Assembly (NCBI GenBank): GCA_024614665.1
Contig: GCA_024614665.1_4861.1
Strand: one strand, 5' to 3'
Length of the DNA: 64,000 nt
Source: a phage
Part shown: piece after piece, positions 1 through 34,564 of the stretch
Layout: every line of letters starts with the position of its first letter
How positions within the stretch are numbered: position 1 is the first letter of the stretch
Position numbers and translations under genes: made by a program
The notes under the pieces: model-generated
Seen by the model: only the letters and a program-made list of their open reading frames with translations
Database searches by the model: none
Told to the model about the DNA's origin: nothing

Positions 1-1934
1 TGATCTTCACCTTTGCCGCGCGCGGGGTAGACAACGAGGCGTTCCCGTTAACCGGGGATAATGCACTGTCTCTGCTTGGTCGCAATGTCTTTGACTTGCG
101 AGGCCCCTACGCGACGTTCAACACGCCCTATCAGGCGATGTTCAACGCCAACGCAAACGAGTGTATGTATCAGCGCTTGATCCCTGAAGATGCGAAGACC
201 GCAAGTGTTCGCGTATTCGCCGACGTACTCGAAACGAAAGTTCCGTCCTACGACCGCGACAGCAACGGGATCGTTCAGTACGACAACTCGGGCAAGCCCA
301 AGATCAAAGAACAAGTTGACGGTTTGGTAATCGTCTTCCGTTCTGTCGTAATCGACGAAACTACCCCGGCCATCGGCGCAGGTGTGGTTATCGACGGGAC
401 GATGACTGGCGAAGGCGGCACGAAATCGAAGCTGTATCCGTTGTTCGATATCGCAGGCCCGTATGCGGGTGCTGACGTCAACGGTTTCGGTTTCAAACTG
501 ATCCCACTCAGCGAGAAATCCAGCCCGGCTCTGACCTCCTCCTATCAAAATGAAGTCGGTGGTCGTGTTTACACCCTGCAATGGTTCGAAACCCTGGCAG
601 GTGTGACTTCTCCGGTAGTGTGGAAAACTCTCACTGGCATGAGTAGCATCAATTTTAGCTTTAAGCCCGATGCATACTATCAGCCGATGAGAACGCAACT
701 CGACTTCGAAGTTGTTGTTGCGGATGCATATCGTCAGACGATGCCTGACATTGGCGAGCTGCCAGATTATGGTCCTTTCGAGCAGTTCTATCTGTATCGC
801 GAGAACCTGGAAACTGTACTGGGATTGGCTCAGGCCGCTATCACGACTGAAGCGCCTACTGACCCGTATATGGTTGACATCTTTGGCGGCTACGATTTAC
901 TGGGCCAGCCTTACGATGGTCTTCAGGTAAACCCGGCTACTGAAACCGGTAAAGTTGTGTTCTCCTCATCCAACATCCACTACCTGCAAGGTGGTAGCGA
1001 TGGTACCATGAACAACGACGTTTACGACGAACTCGTTCGCCGTGAAATGTTGCTGTTCCCGGATGGCGGTAAAGTCCGTTACGACAACGAGCTGAAATAC
1101 TCGCTGGGTTGTTTCTGGGACTCCGGCTTTAGCTTCGATACTAAAGCTGCGCTCGTGAACTTCATCGGTCGTTCACGTAACACCTTCTTGACGCTGGCGA
1201 CTCACGTTTACAGCCAAGGCCGTAACGATGAGCAGGCAGAAGAAAGTGCAAAAATCGCCCTGATCGAATTGATCACAGCGGTACCGGAATCTGCCTATTA
1301 CGGCACTCCGGCTGCACGTGGTATGGTCACCGGCCAATCGGCGTTCATCAAGAACTCTTCCTACAAGAAGCCTGTTCCGATGAACTATTCCCTGGCGAAC
1401 TTCTTCTCGAAGTACCTGGGTGCTGCTGAAGGTCGTGCAAAACCGGCTTATCGTTTCAGCCGTGGCGAACTGACGATTATCGAAGATCTGACTGACCTGA
1501 GTATGCCGTGGAAAGGCAACGAAGTGTATGCATCTGACTGGGATGTGTCGCTGATCACTGCCCGTTCCTACGACTACTATCGCTTGTTCATTCCGGCGAT
1601 TCAGTCAATCTACAGCGAAGATCGTTCTGTACTGAACAACGCCCTGTTCAACTTCATGATGACCTACGTCTATCGTGTTTCCGACCGTGTATGGGCGGAC
1701 ATGTCTGGCGAAGCGGCCATGACGGATGATGAACGTGCGAAGATGATTGAGAACAAAATTATCGAACGTCTGGAAGGCCGTCTCGATAACGTTGCTGTCG
1801 TCACTCCGAAGGCGTACTTCACTGCAGACGATAAATCCAATGGTTACTCTGTGACGCTGGACCTGATCGCTGAAGGCGGTGTGCTGCTCACCCAGTTCAA
1901 CACCACTATCAAAGTTTACCGTCGGGAGAGCTAA
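1..1934 (+). CDS. virion structural protein, 5'-truncated at window edge (possible contractile tail sheath)
   Basis: Frame is open from nt 3 to the stop at 1932-1934 with no upstream stop, so the N-terminus lies outside the window (more than 640 aa). Followed 3 nt later by a 291-aa gene and a strong terminator. Sheath assignment is inference from the size pair and context. Confidence 0.45.
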   Translation, partial: IFTFAARGVDNEAFPLTGDNALSLLGRNVFDLRGPYATFNTPYQAMFNANANECMYQRLIPEDAKTASVRVFADVLETKVPSYDRDSNGIVQYDNSGKPKIKEQVDGLVIVFRSVVIDETTPAIGAGVVIDGTMTGEGGTKSKLYPLFDIAGPYAGADVNGFGFKLIPLSEKSSPALTSSYQNEVGGRVYTLQWFETLAGVTSPVVWKTLTGMSSINFSFKPDAYYQPMRTQLDFEVVVADAYRQTMPDIGELPDYGPFEQFYLYRENLETVLGLAQAAITTEAPTDPYMVDIFGGYDLLGQPYDGLQVNPATETGKVVFSSSNIHYLQGGSDGTMNNDVYDELVRREMLLFPDGGKVRYDNELKYSLGCFWDSGFSFDTKAALVNFIGRSRNTFLTLATHVYSQGRNDEQAEESAKIALIELITAVPESAYYGTPAARGMVTGQSAFIKNSSYKKPVPMNYSLANFFSKYLGAAEGRAKPAYRFSRGELTIIEDLTDLSMPWKGNEVYASDWDVSLITARSYDYYRLFIPAIQSIYSEDRSVLNNALFNFMMTYVYRVSDRVWADMSGEAAMTDDERAKMIENKIIERLEGRLDNVAVVTPKAYFTADDKSNGYSVTLDLIAEGGVLLTQFNTTIKVYRRES

Positions 1935-1937
1935 TAG

Positions 1938-2813
1938 ATGGCAATCAAAGATCGTCTCATTTTGCCTGATCAGGGTCTGCACGTCGACGGCGGCCAGTAC
2001 GATATGGTCAACGCGTTCTCCTCGGGCCAAAACGGCCCGGTTGGACAGGTTGGCAAGTTCGTTACTAACGCCTCTCGTCTGCGTCGTAACGTCATTGCGC
2101 GCGTCATGGAATTCCCTCGTTGGGTGGATTACATGCCGAACCCGCAGATGTGGCGTCAGGCTATCAAGTCCTTTATCGAGGTTCACTCCGAGATTACTGG
2201 CTTGGATAAAACCCTGAGCCATGCGGCTGTTGAAACTCAGCAGGGTCGTAACAACCGTACCCAGTATGAAGCTGGTCTGGTAACGGAAGCACTGTCCTCT
2301 GTTACCTTCACCACCCCGGATAAACTCGGGAAGGTGTACCAGAACATGCTGTGGGCGTGGCTGGTTTACGGTGTTTGCGATCCCCAGACTGGTCACCCAG
2401 GTCTGGCCGCAATCAACCCGAACGTTCCTGACCACCTGCCGGATATGTACAGCATGACCGTGCTGTTCATCGAACCGGATGCATATCAGCGTAAACCGCA
2501 GAATGCGTGGTGGTTAACGAACATGATTCCGGAAACCGCTGGCCAGGATATCGGTGAGCGTGAAACCAACACCGGTCCGCAGATTAACGAACTGTCAATC
2601 GCCTTTACCTCCCAGCAATGGACAGGTTGGGGTCCGATGCAGGCCGCTGCGAAAGAGCTGGATCGTATGAAGCTGTACGGTCTGCGTCCTTACGAACGCA
2701 AACTGTGGCTTACTCCGTCTCAGCAGACCGACGGTATCAACCCGGACGTCAACGCAACCCCAGGTGGTTACAACTCTGTCTCCGACGAGCAGATGGCCAA
2801 CCAGATGCGCTAA
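1938..2813 (+). CDS. virion structural protein (possible tail tube)
   Basis: ATG at 1938 preceded by GGGAGAG Shine-Dalgarno; 291 aa; intrinsic terminator immediately downstream. Confidence 0.45.
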   Translation: MAIKDRLILPDQGLHVDGGQYDMVNAFSSGQNGPVGQVGKFVTNASRLRRNVIARVMEFPRWVDYMPNPQMWRQAIKSFIEVHSEITGLDKTLSHAAVETQQGRNNRTQYEAGLVTEALSSVTFTTPDKLGKVYQNMLWAWLVYGVCDPQTGHPGLAAINPNVPDHLPDMYSMTVLFIEPDAYQRKPQNAWWLTNMIPETAGQDIGERETNTGPQINELSIAFTSQQWTGWGPMQAAAKELDRMKLYGLRPYERKLWLTPSQQTDGINPDVNATPGGYNSVSDEQMANQMR

Positions 2814-2832
2814 GACAAAAAAAACAAGCGTT

Positions 2833-2870
2833 ACCTCTCTCCATTTGGAGAGAGGTACGTTTTATTTTTT
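2833..2870. terminator. bidirectional intrinsic terminator
   Basis: Perfect 10-bp stem ACCTCTCTCC/GGAGAGAGGT with ATTT loop, then TTTTATTTTTT; an A-run on the other side serves the convergent minus gene. Confidence 0.7.
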
Positions 2871-3404
2871 CGGTTGGCCAGCATCGATCTCACGCTGCGC
2901 ATTGGCACGAATCAGCAAGTTCTTGATTTGCAGCAATAATAGATAGGTTACGAGCACATCGAATTCAGACGGCGGTTGAACATCGCCCAAGTCGGGGTGG
3001 GCAATCTTCCAGAGAGACATCCCGTCTTTATAACCTTGTCCTGATTCTGCCGCGAGAATGTCGTTGGCGGACATGCTAATGAGTTCGTGTTCCAGTTGAC
3101 GGAGTACATCGTCACCCAGCTCTACTTGCAACAGGCACTTAAAGCGGATGATAAAGCCCGCGATAATACGACCGCTACTACCTTTGGTGATCGTGTCGAG
3201 AAAACGTTGGTAGCCGTTGATGGTGTGCGGAATAATCTCAACCGGATATTCGGCAATGGTTTCGAAAGCATCTTCCAGTATAGCTTTCATGGACAATGTA
3301 AACACGTCACCGATCTGATTGATGTGGCGGATAATGTCTTCACGTTTCATATCAGATGGAATCGGTTTGATATCGTCCTGACCGAGAGTATTAAGTTGCT
3401 TCAT
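2862..3404 (-). CDS. hypothetical protein
   Basis: 180-aa ORF, GGAG upstream of ATG; stop lies within the terminator T-tract. Confidence 0.55.
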   Translation of the reverse strand: MKQLNTLGQDDIKPIPSDMKREDIIRHINQIGDVFTLSMKAILEDAFETIAEYPVEIIPHTINGYQRFLDTITKGSSGRIIAGFIIRFKCLLQVELGDDVLRQLEHELISMSANDILAAESGQGYKDGMSLWKIAHPDLGDVQPPSEFDVLVTYLLLLQIKNLLIRANAQREIDAGQPKK

Positions 3405-28215: not shown

Positions 28216-28695
28216 TTAATTAATCAGGTGTATCACAACGTCTGGCGTTACTACGTCGACCAGACTGCGATAGATTTTATCGTAACTGAACTTGTTGAAG
28301 AAGAAACCCGCTTCATCGACAATAACCAAGCCGAATTTCTCGTAGCCGGATATACCAGCACCCGTCGCGCGTTTCCAACCCTCAGGCAAGTAGTTACAGT
28401 GCACGGTCAGCCAACCGTTCCCAGCGGCTTTTTCATGGAATTTCTCCACCACTTCGCTCCGTAACGCTTCATTGTGAACCAGATACAGAACGCTGCCGTG
28501 GAACTTTGCTGACATATCAACAGCGTGTGTTGTAACGCCTTTCTGACGACCAGCGCCATAGCGGATAGTGCGGAACTCGCTCAGTGCAATATGCGGTAAA
28601 AAGCCACAGCTACGGGCTTCATCGGAGTCCAGTTCGATAAGACCTTTGGACAGTTCTTTTACTACGGCGCGATAATCGATCCGAGTTATAGACAT
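28216..28695 (-). CDS. hypothetical protein
   Basis: 159-aa ORF; LVIVDEAGFF resembles a Walker B box but no Walker A was seen. Confidence 0.5.
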   Translation of the reverse strand: MSITRIDYRAVVKELSKGLIELDSDEARSCGFLPHIALSEFRTIRYGAGRQKGVTTHAVDMSAKFHGSVLYLVHNEALRSEVVEKFHEKAAGNGWLTVHCNYLPEGWKRATGAGISGYEKFGLVIVDEAGFFFNKFSYDKIYRSLVDVVTPDVVIHLIN

Positions 28696-28706
28696 CTGTT
28701 TTCACC

Positions 28707-29504
28707 TTATTTGTAGTTAACCATATACGGCGCGCCCTGCTTAGTAAAGCCAACCGTCAGCTTGCTCGCCTCTTCTTTTACCCATGCGGGTAATTCTTCA
28801 CGGAATGCCGGGTTCAGGAACCAAATCTGCTCATAGCGCCCGTCAATCTTTTCAACAACACGTTCCCAACCTTCGACGTACGTCAACGAGAACCATTTAA
28901 AACGCGCATGGCGTGCCCAGTAGTGGTATTCGATGGTTCGACCGACGTGAGTCAATACATCAATCAGAACTTGGTAGAAGCTCGGCTTTCCGATGACATG
29001 GGTATACTCGAAGATAACAGACTCTTCGCCAGGGACGAAGTTATCTTCAAAATTCTTCTCCCCTGTTAAAGGTACCATTATCGTGTCGTTGTTGATACAC
29101 AGCAACCAGTGCTTATTCGAAAATATCGGCGTGTCGCCTGAGAAACGAGCCCAGCGATAATTTTCAATCGCGACGCCAATCTGTGGCCGTAATGTATCGA
29201 CCACCTTCGCTATCGCTGCAGGGTCTATCGGCTCATAGACCAGACAAATCGCTTGCACTTGCTCTCTTTCCTGCTCAGGTTCCGCAGGTCGTGGTCGCCG
29301 CCCCAGCATCAAAATCCCACTAAGATTAGTTTCCCCAATCTCAATGATTTCTATTTCGCTAGTAGGAAGCTGCCGTTTAGCGTCCTCCATGTCGACGGCT
29401 CCTAATAACCCGTATTCGTAGTCGTCGAATTCCACCGTGTAGAATTCATCGGAGAACGCAAAGAGTTTCATCATCTTATTTCTCCATTGTTTTAAAGAGA
29501 ACAT
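28707..29504 (-). CDS. hypothetical protein
   Basis: 265-aa ORF in the array. Confidence 0.5.
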   Translation of the reverse strand: MFSLKQWRNKMMKLFAFSDEFYTVEFDDYEYGLLGAVDMEDAKRQLPTSEIEIIEIGETNLSGILMLGRRPRPAEPEQEREQVQAICLVYEPIDPAAIAKVVDTLRPQIGVAIENYRWARFSGDTPIFSNKHWLLCINNDTIMVPLTGEKNFEDNFVPGEESVIFEYTHVIGKPSFYQVLIDVLTHVGRTIEYHYWARHARFKWFSLTYVEGWERVVEKIDGRYEQIWFLNPAFREELPAWVKEEASKLTVGFTKQGAPYMVNYK

Positions 29505-29739
29505 CTACGCTATTACGGAGCATATTCAGTTCTTCTTCTTTCTTACGCAGCAGCATTTCAGGAGCGTTCTTTGCAAACTCTTTCAGTGCCATTTGGACGA
29601 CATGCGAATCGGTTTCGTCCGGGAACAGAGCTTTTAATGCGACCCATTCTTCCGCGGTGAATACGTCGCCCTTGCGGACATTACGCTGTTGTGGCAGTCG
29701 AATTGTTTTACTGAGACGGTCTGTCATAACTCCACCCAA
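29476..29739 (-). CDS. hypothetical protein
   Basis: 87-aa ORF overlapping both neighbours slightly. Confidence 0.4.
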   Translation of the reverse strand: MGGVMTDRLSKTIRLPQQRNVRKGDVFTAEEWVALKALFPDETDSHVVQMALKEFAKNAPEMLLRKKEEELNMLRNSVDVLFKTMEK

Positions 29740-30260
29740 ATCAGTTTAAAGGTATTACCTTCTAAGCCAGTAGGATGGATAATCATCGCTTCGGTATAGA
29801 TAGGCTCTTCTTCCGCAATACGGTGCTCAGCTGCTAAGCCTGAAAGGTGCATGTAGAGGTCTTCATCCATATCCCCGTTAAAAGACGAAGTCAGGATAAA
29901 GGGTGTGGACTCAGCGATTTGCAAAAGCGTTTCTTTGCTAATCTGTATTTCCATTGTCCGACGCCGTTCCATCCAGCTACCTTGCTCGTGGATATATGGG
30001 TCGGTATTAATGCGAACGACAGGTTCCGTAGACACACCCAGACCACGCGACATCATCTGGATAGCCAGAAGCGTCCACCATTCTTGTTCGGATATCGGGA
30101 AACCGATAGCCTTCATTGTACCGTCCGGTTGTGGAACGTGTAATTGTCCACGATGTTCGTCTGGAAGCTCGATGATCTTCTGTCCGTTGATAGGAATAAA
30201 CGGCGATTCGTCCGTAGCAACCGCCGCTTTAGGCTTGAAGGGAACGATGTTGTCAACCAT
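29724..30260 (-). CDS. hypothetical protein
   Basis: 178-aa ORF directly downstream of thyA; no DHFR motifs. Confidence 0.5.
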   Translation of the reverse strand: MVDNIVPFKPKAAVATDESPFIPINGQKIIELPDEHRGQLHVPQPDGTMKAIGFPISEQEWWTLLAIQMMSRGLGVSTEPVVRINTDPYIHEQGSWMERRRTMEIQISKETLLQIAESTPFILTSSFNGDMDEDLYMHLSGLAAEHRIAEEEPIYTEAMIIHPTGLEGNTFKLIWVEL

Positions 30261-30272
30261 AAACGCTCCTAA

Positions 30273-31310
30273 TTAGATAGCGACTGGTGCTTTAATTGGG
30301 TCGTGTGATACATAATCCCGGATCTCAAAATCTTCGAACTTATAATCGAAGATAGATTCCGGTTTACGCTTGATGACCAGTTTCGGTAAAGGTAAATGTT
30401 CGCGCGTCAGCTGCAGCTTGGCCTGCTCCAGATGGTTGGAGTACAGATGCACATCGCCGCCACTCCAAACGAAATCGCCCGGCACCATGTTAACTTGCTG
30501 TGCTACCATGTGTACGAGTAATGCGTAAGACGCGATGTTGAACGGTGTTCCCAGGAAGAAGTCTTGGGAACGTGCGTACAGTTGACATGAAAGAACGCGG
30601 CGAGGTATTTCAAGTGCGTCCATCTCAACGTGGAACACTGTGTCATCTGCTACAGCTTCATTACTAAAGCGGGAATCGTTAAATTGATCTGGAAGGTTCT
30701 TTTCAAACCAATCAAGACGCTCGTCGATAGACAGCTCACGAGTGTAGAACTGAAAGAACGCATGACACGGAGCTAACGCCATTTGATCCAACTCACCCAC
30801 GTTCCATGCGCTGACAATAATACGGCGACTGTCAGGATCGTTACGCAGCTGGTCAATCACCTTAGAGATCTGGTCGTGCTCTTTCAGAAGTACACGCGCA
30901 TCGAACATTTGTGAACCGTCGTCCGCGTCGCCATAATCCGCGTATCCAGCAGCTTGCAGTTTCTCGAGTAAAGCTGCATTTTTCTTAGGCACCAGTTTCA
31001 CATCTTTCCAACGTCTCCATTGTGCACCATACAGGGGTCCAAGGTTCCCATTCTCATCTTGCCACTCCCGCCAAATGGTAACGCCGTTATCTTCCAGATA
31101 TTTGGTGTTGGTATCACCACTAAGGAACCACAGCAATTCATGGATAATAGAACGCAGGTGGAGTTTCTTAGTCGTGACTAACGGGAAACCTTTACGCAAA
31201 TCAAAACGCATCTGGCGACCAAAGACAGAAAGCGTCCCCGTTCCAGTACGATCGCCTTTAACATGACCCTCGTCCAGAATGTTCTGCATCATCTCAAGAT
31301 ATTGTTTCAC
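30273..31310 (-). CDS. thyA: thymidylate synthase (ThyA family) with two insertions
   Basis: Near-collinear match to E. coli ThyA as I remember it ([63 protein letters not shown]-terminal KAPVAI). Start placed at GTG 31310 with AAGGAAA SD. Confidence 0.85.
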
Positions 31311-31312
31311 AA

Positions 31313-32251
31313 TTATTTTCCTTTCAATAAATTCAAAATGTCTCTTAAATCGTCGTTCGCACAAATGTTTACAGCGTTACCATCGAACTTAACATCAACA
31401 CGAGGGTTACGATTGAACAACATTTGTTTTCTTACTATCCACGGTTCAAAGTGCGCCTTGAGAAGCTCTTGCAGCTTTTCGTTCATAATGTCCTCCATCC
31501 GCAGCAATAGCTGCGGCATGGCGACTTCACCGTTATGTTTGGTTTGTAAATCATTCGATGTGGCCAAAAGGCAATTTACAATAATGTCGTGAACTGACTC
31601 GTTGGTTTTGTACACCGCCTGATAGGTTTGTTTCGCCAAATCGTTGTCGGGTAACGGCAACGTTGCTTTAAGCAGTTCGCCGAGCGTGCTTAATGTTTCG
31701 GGAGTCTTAACGAGCTTACGATGACCGTTAAAAACAACGCGGTCAAACTCCAGCCCGCAGCGACACGCTAACAATTGATACTGCCTCATCAACTTACGAA
31801 GCAGCGCGCTGTAACTCTTAGGGTCGTGTTCTGGTTCTCGCAAAACAACACTAACGGCCTCGACCGCAATTAACATGAGTTGCTGCAGCTGCCCTTCTTT
31901 CGTTCCAGTTGTAGTACGAACGGATAGCGCGTCACTCAGCGGAACGATAATATCGCCGAAGTTAGAATGTGGACCGAGGTGTAGCAGCGCGGCAAATGTC
32001 CAAATCGATTCGCCGATACCGGCAGCCACCTTTAGGTTATCCAGTTCATCGACACCTGCTGAGATCCTGCCGAGTGTGACGTAATACTTTACCAACTGAC
32101 GCTCAGTCGCTTTCTGTTGGTAGATATCCGTCTTGCGAAACCACTCTTCGACTGCCTGAACTTGCTGAATGATGCTAGGCACAGACTTCTTCCTCCCGAT
32201 ACGCGTAGCAGATTGCAAAGTTAAGCTGGCCGGTTGCGCGAGAAACCACAA
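31313..32251 (-). CDS. hypothetical protein
   Basis: 312-aa ORF; start uncertain because it overlaps the next ORF. Confidence 0.5.
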
Positions 32252-32597
32252 CGGCGATAGTCTGGTCTTCTACACCCGACATCGGTGTGCCCTGGTTAAC
32301 CATCTGGCCAGCGGCTTTACTTACCGGACCCAACAAACGCCAGCTGTACAGACGACTACGTAACGCCGCGTTTTGTAAGAAAGCGGAACCGCAATCATAG
32401 TCGACGTTAAACGCTGCAAACATTGGACCACAGTCCGCCATCGTGCCGTTAAACGGCAGCTCGCTCGTTACCACAATCTTCACAGGCTTGTCTTTGAGAC
32501 GTTGCGCTAACGCTTCCCAGTTAGCGTTATTAGTGCCAGCGACGATGGTGTTGTTCAGAAGTAACCCAACGCCTTTTTCAAACGCGATATTGTTCAT
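32175..32597 (-). CDS. hypothetical protein
   Basis: 140-aa ORF. Confidence 0.45.
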   Translation of the reverse strand: MNNIAFEKGVGLLLNNTIVAGTNNANWEALAQRLKDKPVKIVVTSELPFNGTMADCGPMFAAFNVDYDCGSAFLQNAALRSRLYSWRLLGPVSKAAGQMVNQGTPMSGVEDQTIAVVVSRATGQLNFAICYAYREEEVCA

Positions 32598-32645
32598 TAT
32601 AGTTCTCCTTGAGGTCTTTTACATACGTACAGCCGTGGCCGTAAA

Positions 32646-33008
32646 TTATCGAAGAATAAGAATTTGGCTACTGTCGTGCACATTGTACGTATTCATCCTG
32701 GGCTTGCTAGGCGGATTGAATCCCATCAATAATTCGCTCAATACACGACCAGGCTGCCCACTGAAGATAACCAGGTGTGTGGTGTCTTCGCCGTCTCCAA
32801 GTCGGGAGAAAGCCACGCGTGGCGACGCAGCTTGCGTGTAGAGTTGCAATAGTTGAAACTTACCTTCTGCGAAGGGAGCAAGTTTCTCTTTCCACTCGAC
32901 CATAGATGATTCGTCGAGTTCTAACGTGCGTACACGTCTCCCGTCGCTATCCGCAACCCCACAAACAAACACGATTCCGTGACGATTAAAGAAAAAACCG
33001 ATTTGCAT
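32646..33008 (-). CDS. hypothetical protein
   Basis: 120-aa ORF with AAGGAG SD; preceded by a terminator. Confidence 0.5.
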   Translation of the reverse strand: MQIGFFFNRHGIVFVCGVADSDGRRVRTLELDESSMVEWKEKLAPFAEGKFQLLQLYTQAASPRVAFSRLGDGEDTTHLVIFSGQPGRVLSELLMGFNPPSKPRMNTYNVHDSSQILILR

Positions 33009-33023
33009 TTACATACTCCTTAA

Positions 33024-33062
33024 GATAAAAAATGAAGATACCCTCCCCCGAAGGAGAGGGTA
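33024..33062 (-). terminator. intrinsic terminator
   Basis: Hairpin TACCCTC...GAGGGTA followed on the minus strand by TCTTCATTTTTTATC. Confidence 0.6.
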
Positions 33063-33066
33063 CGAC

Positions 33067-33729
33067 TTAGATGCGGGTTTCATTATCCCAGTAGTCCCGA
33101 ATGACTTCTTGGTCATCGGGGTTAGAAGGATTGCCTGGAATAGCGTCTTCTACTGCAAACGGCAATACGTCCTTGATAGACGTCAGCTCAAATCGCTCAA
33201 CTTCCAGTTCGACTTTTACCCACTCGCCGAATGTAGTGGAGTCGCGCAGTTCGTTGACAAGGTCTTCAAACCCCGCTTGCGATTCGATAACCGGATGACC
33301 TGCCAGTTTAAAGAACAGGTCGATATCCCAATGTTTCGCACCTTGCTCTGCCAGCTCGCCTGGCTCGAGTTTGATACGACGCACGAGATGCGCAAGATTG
33401 CCATCTTCGTAGAAGGTCAGACCGGAAGCAAACCCGATATCCGAGTTCTCTTCGATACGACCATCAGATGCTTGCCTTTTTAACGTCAGTACCGCGGTTT
33501 TATCGGTGGACAACCGCACCCGGCGTTTGCCGTTAACGACCGGCATAATCACATCCAGGAAGGTTTCGCCTGTCTGACCAAACAGCCATTGCCAACCTTC
33601 TTCAGTGGGCTTAACCCACATGCAATACTCACGTTCCTTCTCCGTAGAGATAGACTCACGCGCAACAGTAATGACTTCTTTTTCCTGCTGCTCGTCTAAG
33701 TTTTTGAGAATATCAAATAGTCCCATCAT
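33067..33729 (-). CDS. hypothetical protein
   Basis: 220-aa ORF. Confidence 0.5.
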   Translation of the reverse strand: MMGLFDILKNLDEQQEKEVITVARESISTEKEREYCMWVKPTEEGWQWLFGQTGETFLDVIMPVVNGKRRVRLSTDKTAVLTLKRQASDGRIEENSDIGFASGLTFYEDGNLAHLVRRIKLEPGELAEQGAKHWDIDLFFKLAGHPVIESQAGFEDLVNELRDSTTFGEWVKVELEVERFELTSIKDVLPFAVEDAIPGNPSNPDDQEVIRDYWDNETRI

Positions 33730-34564
33730 CGATTCCTAGTTTCTTCAAAAGTTCGGTTCGATCAAACGTACTGTCCTCAGGATCGATATGTTCAGCTATC
33801 ATCTCAATCAGATTTGGTAGCCAGTCCCAGTGTGCTGGGAATATCTTACGCCCTTGCATCATGTAATAATGCTTAAGCGGGATACGTGCTCGCAGAATCT
33901 CTGCAAATACATTACCTAACGATGTCCCGTCGACCGACAGTATAAAGAGTTTATTTACCAGCGCATGGATAAAACGGCTTTCTGTAACCGGGGTAAATGA
34001 ACCGGGCTTATAACTGGTTCCTCCGTAGATTTCCGCTTTCAGATTACGACCTAGCCGGATACAGTCGGTGCCATCTAGTGCACGCAACTTCTCAATATCA
34101 GGCCAGGTGTTCACTGCCTGTCGCATGATATCAAATTCCATCACCAGAGTGCGGTCATCAATCTCACGCATCAGGTAATCCAGAATACGCAGATAGTGGT
34201 AATAACCCTCGAGCGTTCGGAAAGGCCCGTGGGGGGTAACAAAATACTCACCAGGGCGAGCATAGAAGTTACTCGCCATCCGACCTATCTCAGTTCGACC
34301 CTGCGAATAGATGTTGAAGTGATTCAGACCGTCTGTAGACGGCGTGATATCCACCAAGGTACTCTGGTAACCCATACGCAGTAAATAGCGTACAAAGGCT
34401 TCCTTTTCTTCTGGTGGGAGGATGGGACGTAAAACAGGATATGTGGCTTCTACCGAGGCGGGCAACGTAAACCCAAAAGCAGCCGCCAAAGCATCCACCG
34501 ATGCACCATCGACACGTAGACGTTCCAACGCACTACGCAAAAACTTACCTTCATCTTTCGACAT
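33713..34564 (-). CDS. hypothetical protein
   Basis: 283-aa ORF. Confidence 0.5.
   Translation of the reverse strand: MSKDEGKFLRSALERLRVDGASVDALAAAFGFTLPASVEATYPVLRPILPPEEKEAFVRYLLRMGYQSTLVDITPSTDGLNHFNIYSQGRTEIGRMASNFYARPGEYFVTPHGPFRTLEGYYHYLRILDYLMREIDDRTLVMEFDIMRQAVNTWPDIEKLRALDGTDCIRLGRNLKAEIYGGTSYKPGSFTPVTESRFIHALVNKLFILSVDGTSLGNVFAEILRARIPLKHYYMMQGRKIFPAHWDWLPNLIEMIAEHIDPEDSTFDRTELLKKLGIDDGTI

Follow-up and report, generated by a model that had tools for sequence, protein, structure and literature searches.

An SPN3US-like jumbo phage thymidylate synthase with two inserted modules: a mosaic member of an apparently old phage clade

How does a jumbo phage come to carry a thymidylate synthase that looks like the enzyme of an enterobacterial host, and what are the two additional segments inside it? 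The question is raised by thyA at positions 30273..31310 (minus strand) of a 64,000-nucleotide (nt) stretch of phage DNA (GenBank assembly GCA_024614665.1, contig GCA_024614665.1_4861.1), which as a whole is called the window here and whose source is an SPN3US-like jumbo phage (genus Seoulvirus), a giant Salmonella phage type. An earlier note on this DNA had read the gene as a host thyA recently acquired from an enterobacterium, with two in-frame insertions next to the active site. We favour instead a phage enzyme of an old clade, in which the insertions are folded modules that serve quaternary structure or docking and that have been shuffled by recombination, an explanation to which, taken as a whole, we assign a probability of roughly 0.6.

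The gene is predicted to encode a working ThyA-type thymidylate synthase of an SPN3US-like jumbo phage (PF00303, EC 2.1.1.45), converting deoxyuridine monophosphate (dUMP) to thymidine monophosphate; few enzymes are as conserved or as well studied as thymidylate synthase, which also serves as a drug target. PF00303 is the sole Pfam domain (E = 4.6e-112; 373.9 bits against a cut-off of 24.3), the protein matches phrog_160 (E = 1.4e-116), and phmmer against the PDB sequences retrieves Escherichia coli ThyA at E ~1e-121 in three blocks, which pair query residues 1-102, 145-191 and 240-345 with E. coli residues 1-102, 109-155 and 159-264. Identity amounts to 193/264 aligned positions (73%), bearing out the collinearity with E. 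coli ThyA that had been noticed earlier, which extends from MKQYL to KAPVAI. The three blocks correspond to minus-strand core segments at 31005..31310 (with R21, K48, E58, W80, W83 and Y94), 30738..30878 (with R162/R163, equivalent to E. coli R126/R127, and the catalytic Cys182-His183; the codon of Cys182, E. coli C146, lies at 30765..30767) and 30273..30593 (with R247, S248, D250, N258, H288, Y290, KAPVAI and the stop).

In a residue map, 27/28 of the E. coli positions examined are conserved, including every catalytic or ligand-binding one among them (in E. coli numbering R21, K48, E58, W80, W83, Y94, R126/R127, C146, H147, R166, S167, D169, N177, H207, Y209 and the C-terminal A-I), and the single difference is E. 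coli R225, which is L306 here. Thus the catalytic cysteine sits in a P-C-H motif (C182-H183), the phosphate-binding arginines R21, R162, R163 and R247 are all present, as is the residue for dUMP specificity, N258 (E. coli N177), and the folate and closure residues E58, W80, W83, D250, H288, Y290 and A344-I345 are kept. Retention of N258 rather than Asp, the full KAPVAI end and a core 73% identical to a true thymidylate synthase argue against a deoxycytidine monophosphate hydroxymethylase or other pyrimidine hydroxymethylases, although sequence alone does not formally separate the protein from a dUMP hydroxymethylase. We found no second Pfam domain in the polypeptide and no Pfam match in the neighbouring open reading frames (ORFs), which speaks against a bifunctional fusion with dihydrofolate reductase (DHFR) or any other fusion.

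The segments that interrupt this collinearity are two. Insertion 1 (residues 103-144; 30879..31004, minus strand) replaces six E. coli residues and insertion 2 (residues 192-239; 30594..30737, minus strand) replaces three, each appearing as a gap in the E. coli alignment; the net gains of +36 and +45 residues agree with the approximately 35 and 45 estimated before. Relative to E. coli ThyA (PDB 2TSC, 1TYS), with which it shares fold and catalytic residues, the window protein therefore has 81 extra residues in two modules. The architecture with both insertions is found at the DNA level in 35 phage records, and among the best 120 homologues (63-97% identity) 118 are full-length proteins of 336-353 amino acids (aa), every one of which carries both insertions, so that an assembly artefact is ruled out by dozens of independent genomes. 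That the segments are protein rather than intron, as the note had also held, is likewise supported: the reading frame is unbroken and homologous proteins conserve it, and an Rfam search of 29700-31900 with E up to 1 gave no match, under conditions that recovered RF00028 in a phiKZ-like relative as positive control, which argues against an intron or an exonised intron. A degenerate intein fits no better, because the inteins of relatives precede the catalytic cysteine instead of following FFQFY, and insertion 2 is predicted to be helical and has no Hint match.

In an AlphaFold2 model, for which 33 aligned sequences were used (mean predicted local distance difference test score [pLDDT] 77), insertion 1 is predicted as strand-helix-strand-strand (strands 101-108, 124-130 and 137-145, helix 112-120; pLDDT ~70-88) and insertion 2 as four short helices (195-205, 207-212, 217-221 and 223-232; pLDDT 81-93). 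In this model both insertions would be folded surface modules that leave the catalytic residues untouched. A Foldseek search of the PDB with the model returns E. coli ThyA with a template-modelling score (TM-score) of 0.64 when normalised to the query and 0.82-0.83 when normalised to the E. coli chain, the insertions remaining uncovered. Neither insertion is present in a solved structure, and no PDB chain covers insertion 2. Among viral models the top match is the BFVD model of the 201phi2-1 thymidylate synthase (query-normalised TM-score 0.82); since that model was built independently, the added parts are shared between both enzymes.

Insertion 1 lies in the loop following the QWRxW helix, which in eukaryotic enzymes is the site of the second, short insertion (human residues 146-153); its only invariant residue is G122. 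Insertion 2 begins two residues past Y189, seven beta-strand residues from the catalytic Cys182. Both Y189 and F30 are invariant. Their human counterparts, Y202 and F59', stack at the dimer-interface perimeter (PMC9831607). Because insertion 2 adjoins Y189, it would, by homology, emerge at the rim of the dimer interface, on the tip of the beta-hairpin after the catalytic strand, and not at the active site. For insertion 2, the placement "next to the active site" is thus true of the linear sequence only.

The insertions recur far beyond the close relatives. With insertion 2 and short flanks as query, tblastn matches 119 phage records, mostly jumbo phages, including SPN3US-like phages, many Erwinia jumbo phages, phiKZ-like phages, 201phi2-1, PhiPA3, Goslar, Cronobacter phage CR5, Xanthomonas phage LucasX, Tenacibaculum phage PTm1 and Rhizobium phages. 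Alignments place insertion 2 at the same site with shared motifs across these phages and also in RAY, ZY21 (a 112-kb Nickievirus), AhC3_1 and AH04. Homologues of insertion 1 occur in Goslar, a phiKZ-like phage, 201phi2-1, PhiPA3 and Rhizobium phage N46, and insertion 1 is absent from the aligned RAY, PTm1, ZY21, AhC3_1 and AH04 enzymes. When 1.84 billion representative proteins (clusters at 50% identity) were searched with an insertion-2 profile, 330 clusters passed E <= 0.001 and 35 passed E <= 1e-10. The spacing between the catalytic cysteine and the equivalent of R166, 20 residues in E. coli and 65 in the window protein (C182-R247), ranges from 45 to 95 residues over the 98 clusters in which it could be measured, two of them lying outside 50-90, and insertion 2 itself has a median length of 48.5 residues (range 34-76).

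Between FQFY and LSCQLY the clade consensus starts with T-x-E-L-S/T-x-x-E-R and ends with V/I-P-x-R, and the window protein fits it at T190, E192, L193, S194, E197, R198, I235, P236 and R238. Conservation across the 98 clusters reaches 93% for E197, 96% for R198, 97% for P236, 93% for V/I235 and 74% for R238, and the middle of the insertion is variable. Of the 73 clusters measurable throughout, 37 have an expanded insertion-1 site; other sites are expanded as well, namely that of the Lactobacillus casei insertion (35/58 clusters) and the stretch between R126 and C146 (20/73). Taken together, these comparisons indicate that insertion 2 defines a large and old clade of phage thymidylate synthases, about half of which also have insertion 1. 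The insertions are not mentioned in the open literature that could be searched, and within that literature the clade is apparently undescribed. The module does not appear to have a life outside thymidylate synthases: nearly all of the 150 profile matches listed cover both the module and the enzyme flanks, a few comprising flanks alone, and a Pfam scan of insertion-2 representatives finds PF00303 in 10/10. Nor are the insertions strictly tied to nucleus-forming phages, since insertion 2 is also present in ZY21, although tblastn with the 201phi2-1 chimallin is too insensitive for distant phages. One member of the profile set, P0257 (662 aa), joins a thymidylate kinase (PF02223, residues 7-188) to a thymidylate synthase of the insertion-2 type (residues 342-662) in a single fusion protein.

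Within this clade, 201phi2-1 gp350, phiKZ gp235, PhiPA3 gp274 and Goslar gp141 carry insertions 1 and 2 at the same sites as the window protein and share their motifs, with core identities of 48-55% for the enzymes of the Pseudomonas phages (phiKZ-like, 201phi2-1 and PhiPA3) and 70% for Goslar. The three Pseudomonas-phage enzymes differ in having a third large insertion, between DEN and GDLGP, at what we take to be the site of the 50-residue insertion of the L. casei enzyme. The latter is a small-domain insertion at E. coli position 89/90, and it is not present in the window protein, where the W80-Y94 spacing is 14, as in E. coli. The small-domain insertions of the L. casei and eukaryotic enzymes are precedents for surface insertions, but the PDB enzymes have nothing at the site of insertion 2. 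T4-type enzymes lack it too, about 72 of their residues aligning to a 117-residue stretch of the query; the T4 enzyme, the product of td, has its extra residues near the C-terminus.

Among close relatives the modules diverge much more strongly than the enzyme around them. With core identity at 75% or more, the values for insertion 1 drop as low as 12-29% and those for insertion 2 as low as 14-52%. Among the 118 close homologues, distinct alleles number 44 for insertion 1 and 59 for insertion 2. In five of these homologues (P0021-P0025), the core is 94-98% and insertion 1 90-93% identical to the window protein, and insertion 2 is 31-33% identical; another (P0029) has values of 81% for the core, 76% for insertion 1 and 14% for insertion 2. 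Comparison at the DNA level in 60-nt bins locates the breaks. Against EC001, insertion 2 is 35-45% identical and all other bins are 83-98% identical (92-98% after the first). Against MET_P1, both flanking genes and the gene ends are 92-100% identical, insertion 1 being 45-56% and insertion 2 40% identical. Against SPN3US, identity is 97-100% up to nt 705 of the gene and 67-93% thereafter. This last part of the gene (30273..30605 of the window, gene nt 706-1038) is an allele distinct from those of SPN3US, SEGD1 and SPLA1a (67-93%) that resembles those of EC001 and MET_P1 (mostly 93-98%, the first 60-nt bin beside insertion 2 being lower), and because of this different 3' allele megablast matches to most relatives end at nt 990. 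Core patches are mosaic as well (SEGD1 nt 181-300, SPN3US nt 706-1035).

Synonymous sites are saturated in the swapped pieces and unsaturated in the flanks, the core having a synonymous divergence (dS) of 0.3-0.8. By this measure the divergent modules are best read as old alleles imported by recombination, not as products of fast local change. The exchange looks like cassette swapping, with insertion 2 swapped independently of insertion 1. Because of such internal mosaicism, jumbo-phage phylogenies based on thyA call for caution.

A probable driver of the exchange is suggested by the homing elements that relatives carry in or beside thyA. In the phiKZ-like Pseudomonas phage phi9_PA9 the gene is split (locus 751-3214), exon 1 ending LSCQLYQR and exon 2 resuming SVDTFLGKPFNI, by a group I intron (RF00028, 69 bits, 1812-2049) with an ORF for an I-TevI-like GIY-YIG/NUMOD3 endonuclease (1980-2870); the window thyA, by contrast, is continuous. 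Many representative profile matches stop exactly at the phi9_PA9 intron point, and split genes are therefore common in the clade. Four further insertion-2 enzymes (P0123, P0139, P0226 and P0238) are interrupted between ALPP and the catalytic Cys-His by a Hint + LAGLIDADG intein, whose +1 residue is the catalytic cysteine. The homing elements of relatives thus bracket insertion 2, with the intein before the catalytic cysteine and the group I intron after LSCQLYQR. The window gene resembles neither intein-type thymidylate synthases, having PF00303 only and no Hint domain before the catalytic cysteine, nor the intron type of T4 td, which is known to be targeted by a group I intron and by the I-TevI endonuclease.

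In Salmonella phage SPLA3 (locus 1566-2500), an extra segment of ~935 bp, absent from the window, stands directly upstream of thyA (corresponding window position ~31311) and holds a 255-aa ORF that is annotated 'restriction endonuclease' and lacks a Pfam match. The C-terminal motif of this ORF, FGGKGVTVCDRW, matches an in-frame insertion in the 527-aa PTm1 thymidylate synthase (blastp E = 1e-6).

As a plausible mechanism, homing elements that target thyA in relatives would make breaks that favour co-conversion of its central part. The patchwork of modules would then arise from recombination with co-infecting relatives, and not from a special function of the diversity. By analogy with what is known of I-TevI and the T4 Seg endonucleases, we consider that homing elements probably drive the mosaic exchange.

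What the modules do is a separate matter. Their role most likely concerns quaternary structure or the docking of partners, a reading favoured by the conserved charged base of insertion 2, its position at the interface rim, the kept fold, the retention over deep divergence and the analogy with T4, whose thymidylate synthase has surface insertions that, in work by Finer-Moore and colleagues from 1994, were reportedly proposed to mediate contacts within the complex that synthesises deoxynucleoside triphosphates. In this proposal the conserved base (T-x-E-L-S/T-x-x-E-R ... V/I-P-x-R) would anchor insertion 2 on the core or on the partner subunit, the anchored module would extend or lock the homodimer, and the variable outer surface of both modules would offer docking surfaces for phage partners. 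If a module does control dimerisation or partner binding, it would show how a phage tailors a host-like core enzyme, and drug designers, who target the dimer interface of the human enzyme, would gain a natural handle on that interface; a whole clade with a folded rim module has no solved structure.

Several observations weigh against the combined explanation. The outer parts of the modules are 12-52% identical where the cores are 75-80% identical, and the independent swap of insertion 2 in P0021-P0025 is hard to fit to a conserved partner interface unless the partner co-varies. Knock-down of phiKZ gp235 had weak effects (PMC12571901), so that the enzyme is not critical in phiKZ. The window thyA itself contains no homing element, with PF00303 as its only Pfam domain and no Rfam match in 29700-31900. 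Finally, the gene context does not supply a partner, as all neighbours are of unknown function and DHFR is not adjacent.

A more specific proposal, which we hold only tentatively and regard as doubtful, is that insertion 2 is a phage-specific functional module on the dimer-interface rim that, through its near-invariant E-R ... P-x-R base, endows the phage enzyme with something that its host counterpart does not have. If this were so, the property might be exclusive homodimerisation, such that the phage subunit does not pair with the 73%-identical ThyA of the host, a change in half-sites regulation, or, in nucleus-forming phages, docking into a phage nucleotide-synthesis complex.

The main rival to a role in quaternary structure or docking is that the modules are neutral decoration, that is, tolerated expansions of two permissive surface sites that lack a function of their own and are kept only since deleting a folded module does harm. 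It accounts for the very high variability beside an ultra-conserved core and for the independent exchange of whole modules between alleles, and it fits both the variable expansion of the other sites in the clade (the L. casei site and R126-C146, as above) and the fact that bacterial, T4 and human enzymes work without these modules. However, E197, R198 and P236 are as conserved across the 98 clusters (93-97%) as many core positions, insertion 2 has been kept in at least 330 clusters whose hosts come from several bacterial phyla, and the predicted fold is conserved out to 201phi2-1. Moreover, the ratio of nonsynonymous to synonymous substitution rates (dN/dS) within alleles, where measurable, is below 1 (0.1-0.6, from small counts). 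We therefore regard neutral decoration as unlikely, while giving it more weight than any other competing account.

Far less probable is an arms-race surface, with modules that are recognised by, or evade, a host defence or the inhibitor of a rival phage and that are under diversifying selection. A sharply local hot spot of diversity in genomes that are otherwise 92-100% identical, together with the 44 and 59 alleles counted above, would fit such a conflict. Nevertheless, saturation of synonymous sites in the divergent pieces and not in the flanks points to the import of old alleles, the mosaic core patches of SEGD1 and SPN3US show that exchange is not confined to the modules, and no dN/dS above 1 is seen. 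A literature search likewise found no link between phage thymidylate synthase and a defence trigger.

The host-like appearance, from which the idea of capture arose, weakens on comparison with bacterial thyA, for which we used the 80 closest loci with one genome per species, E. coli and Salmonella not being among them, and a separate blastn search of 5,426 E. coli genomes. The closest bacterial loci are from Enterobacterales (Pantoea, Mixta, Serratia, Enterobacter and Citrobacter). By blastn, identity between eight phage alleles and these 80 loci is 70-79% over long stretches, and the match to E. coli thyA is 70-71% identical at the DNA level, in three pieces that skip the insertions. In the 80 best loci the thyA matches span 777-831 nt and none contains an insertion. 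Recent gene conversion from a host thyA can likewise be rejected, no segment exceeding ~79% over long stretches in either comparison. At the protein level the core is 74-76% identical to Enterobacterales enzymes and 64-69% to those of Betaproteobacteria, Bacteroidota and Actinomycetes, to which E. coli ThyA itself is 71-75% identical. The core of the window protein is as distant from E. coli ThyA as E. coli ThyA is from betaproteobacterial ThyA. The host-like look would thus be mostly a matter of the extreme conservation of the enzyme, with a weak enterobacterial leaning.

The C-terminal KAPVAI, which had been taken as a sign of recent enterobacterial origin, does not carry that meaning, as similar ends (APVAI/APIAV) are found on the aligned enzymes of Erwinia, Tenacibaculum and Rhizobium phages. 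The insertions, for their part, predate this lineage, because homologous insertions are present in the phiKZ-like, 201phi2-1, PhiPA3 and Goslar enzymes. Although the core is nearest to Enterobacterales among bacteria, recent capture of a thyA from an enterobacterium followed by the gain of two novel insertions beside the active site is extremely improbable in view of DNA identities of ~70% with E. coli thyA and no more than 79% with the bacterial loci, the absence of insertions from all 80 of the latter (0/80) and the insertions common to distant phage enzymes with cores 48-70% identical. The gene is an ordinary, annotated type of phage thymidylate synthase and is not evidence of recent host-to-phage transfer.

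The immediate context of the gene is compact. The coding sequence comprises 345 codons plus the stop and runs from a GTG start at 31308-31310, as given by the ORF list and the sequence, to yield a protein that begins MKQYLEMMQ and ends KAPVAI. A Shine-Dalgarno-like AAGGA, read from the sequence at 31319..31323 (minus strand), lies 8 nt 5' of the GTG within the 3' end of the upstream ORF (31313..32251, minus strand). The TAA stop of this ORF sits 2 nt ahead of the thyA GTG, which suggests coupled translation of the two genes. A longer ORF of 363 aa from a TTG at 31364 is unsupported, as the homologues begin with MKQYL and have 345 aa. Around it, thyA lies inside a tight run of same-strand ORFs (28216-34564, minus strand); a Pfam scan of its neighbours in this run gave no match, and their PHROG families are all of unknown function (phrog_10269, 9376, 17877, 10453, 2586, 9744, 7768 and 652). 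No DHFR gene adjoins the window thyA, in contrast to phage ZY21, where DHFR is directly 3' of thyA.

In DNA, the annotated thymidylate synthase gene of Salmonella phage 1252 matches this one at 97.6% identity, and SPN3US_0229 does so at 95%. PMC5694885 raised the possibility of a further synthase in SPN3US, as it names gp100 a predicted thymidylate synthase. In GenBank, SPN3US_0100 (93524-94147) is annotated as a thymidylate kinase and the actual synthase is SPN3US_0229, so the label in the paper is probably a slip. In the SPFM phages LR535901, LR535903, LR535905, LR535906, LR535911-LR535913 and LR535917, the thyA matches are split into 9-12 short pieces of 96-97% identity, a fragmentation that suggests many indel errors in the assemblies, not real differences.

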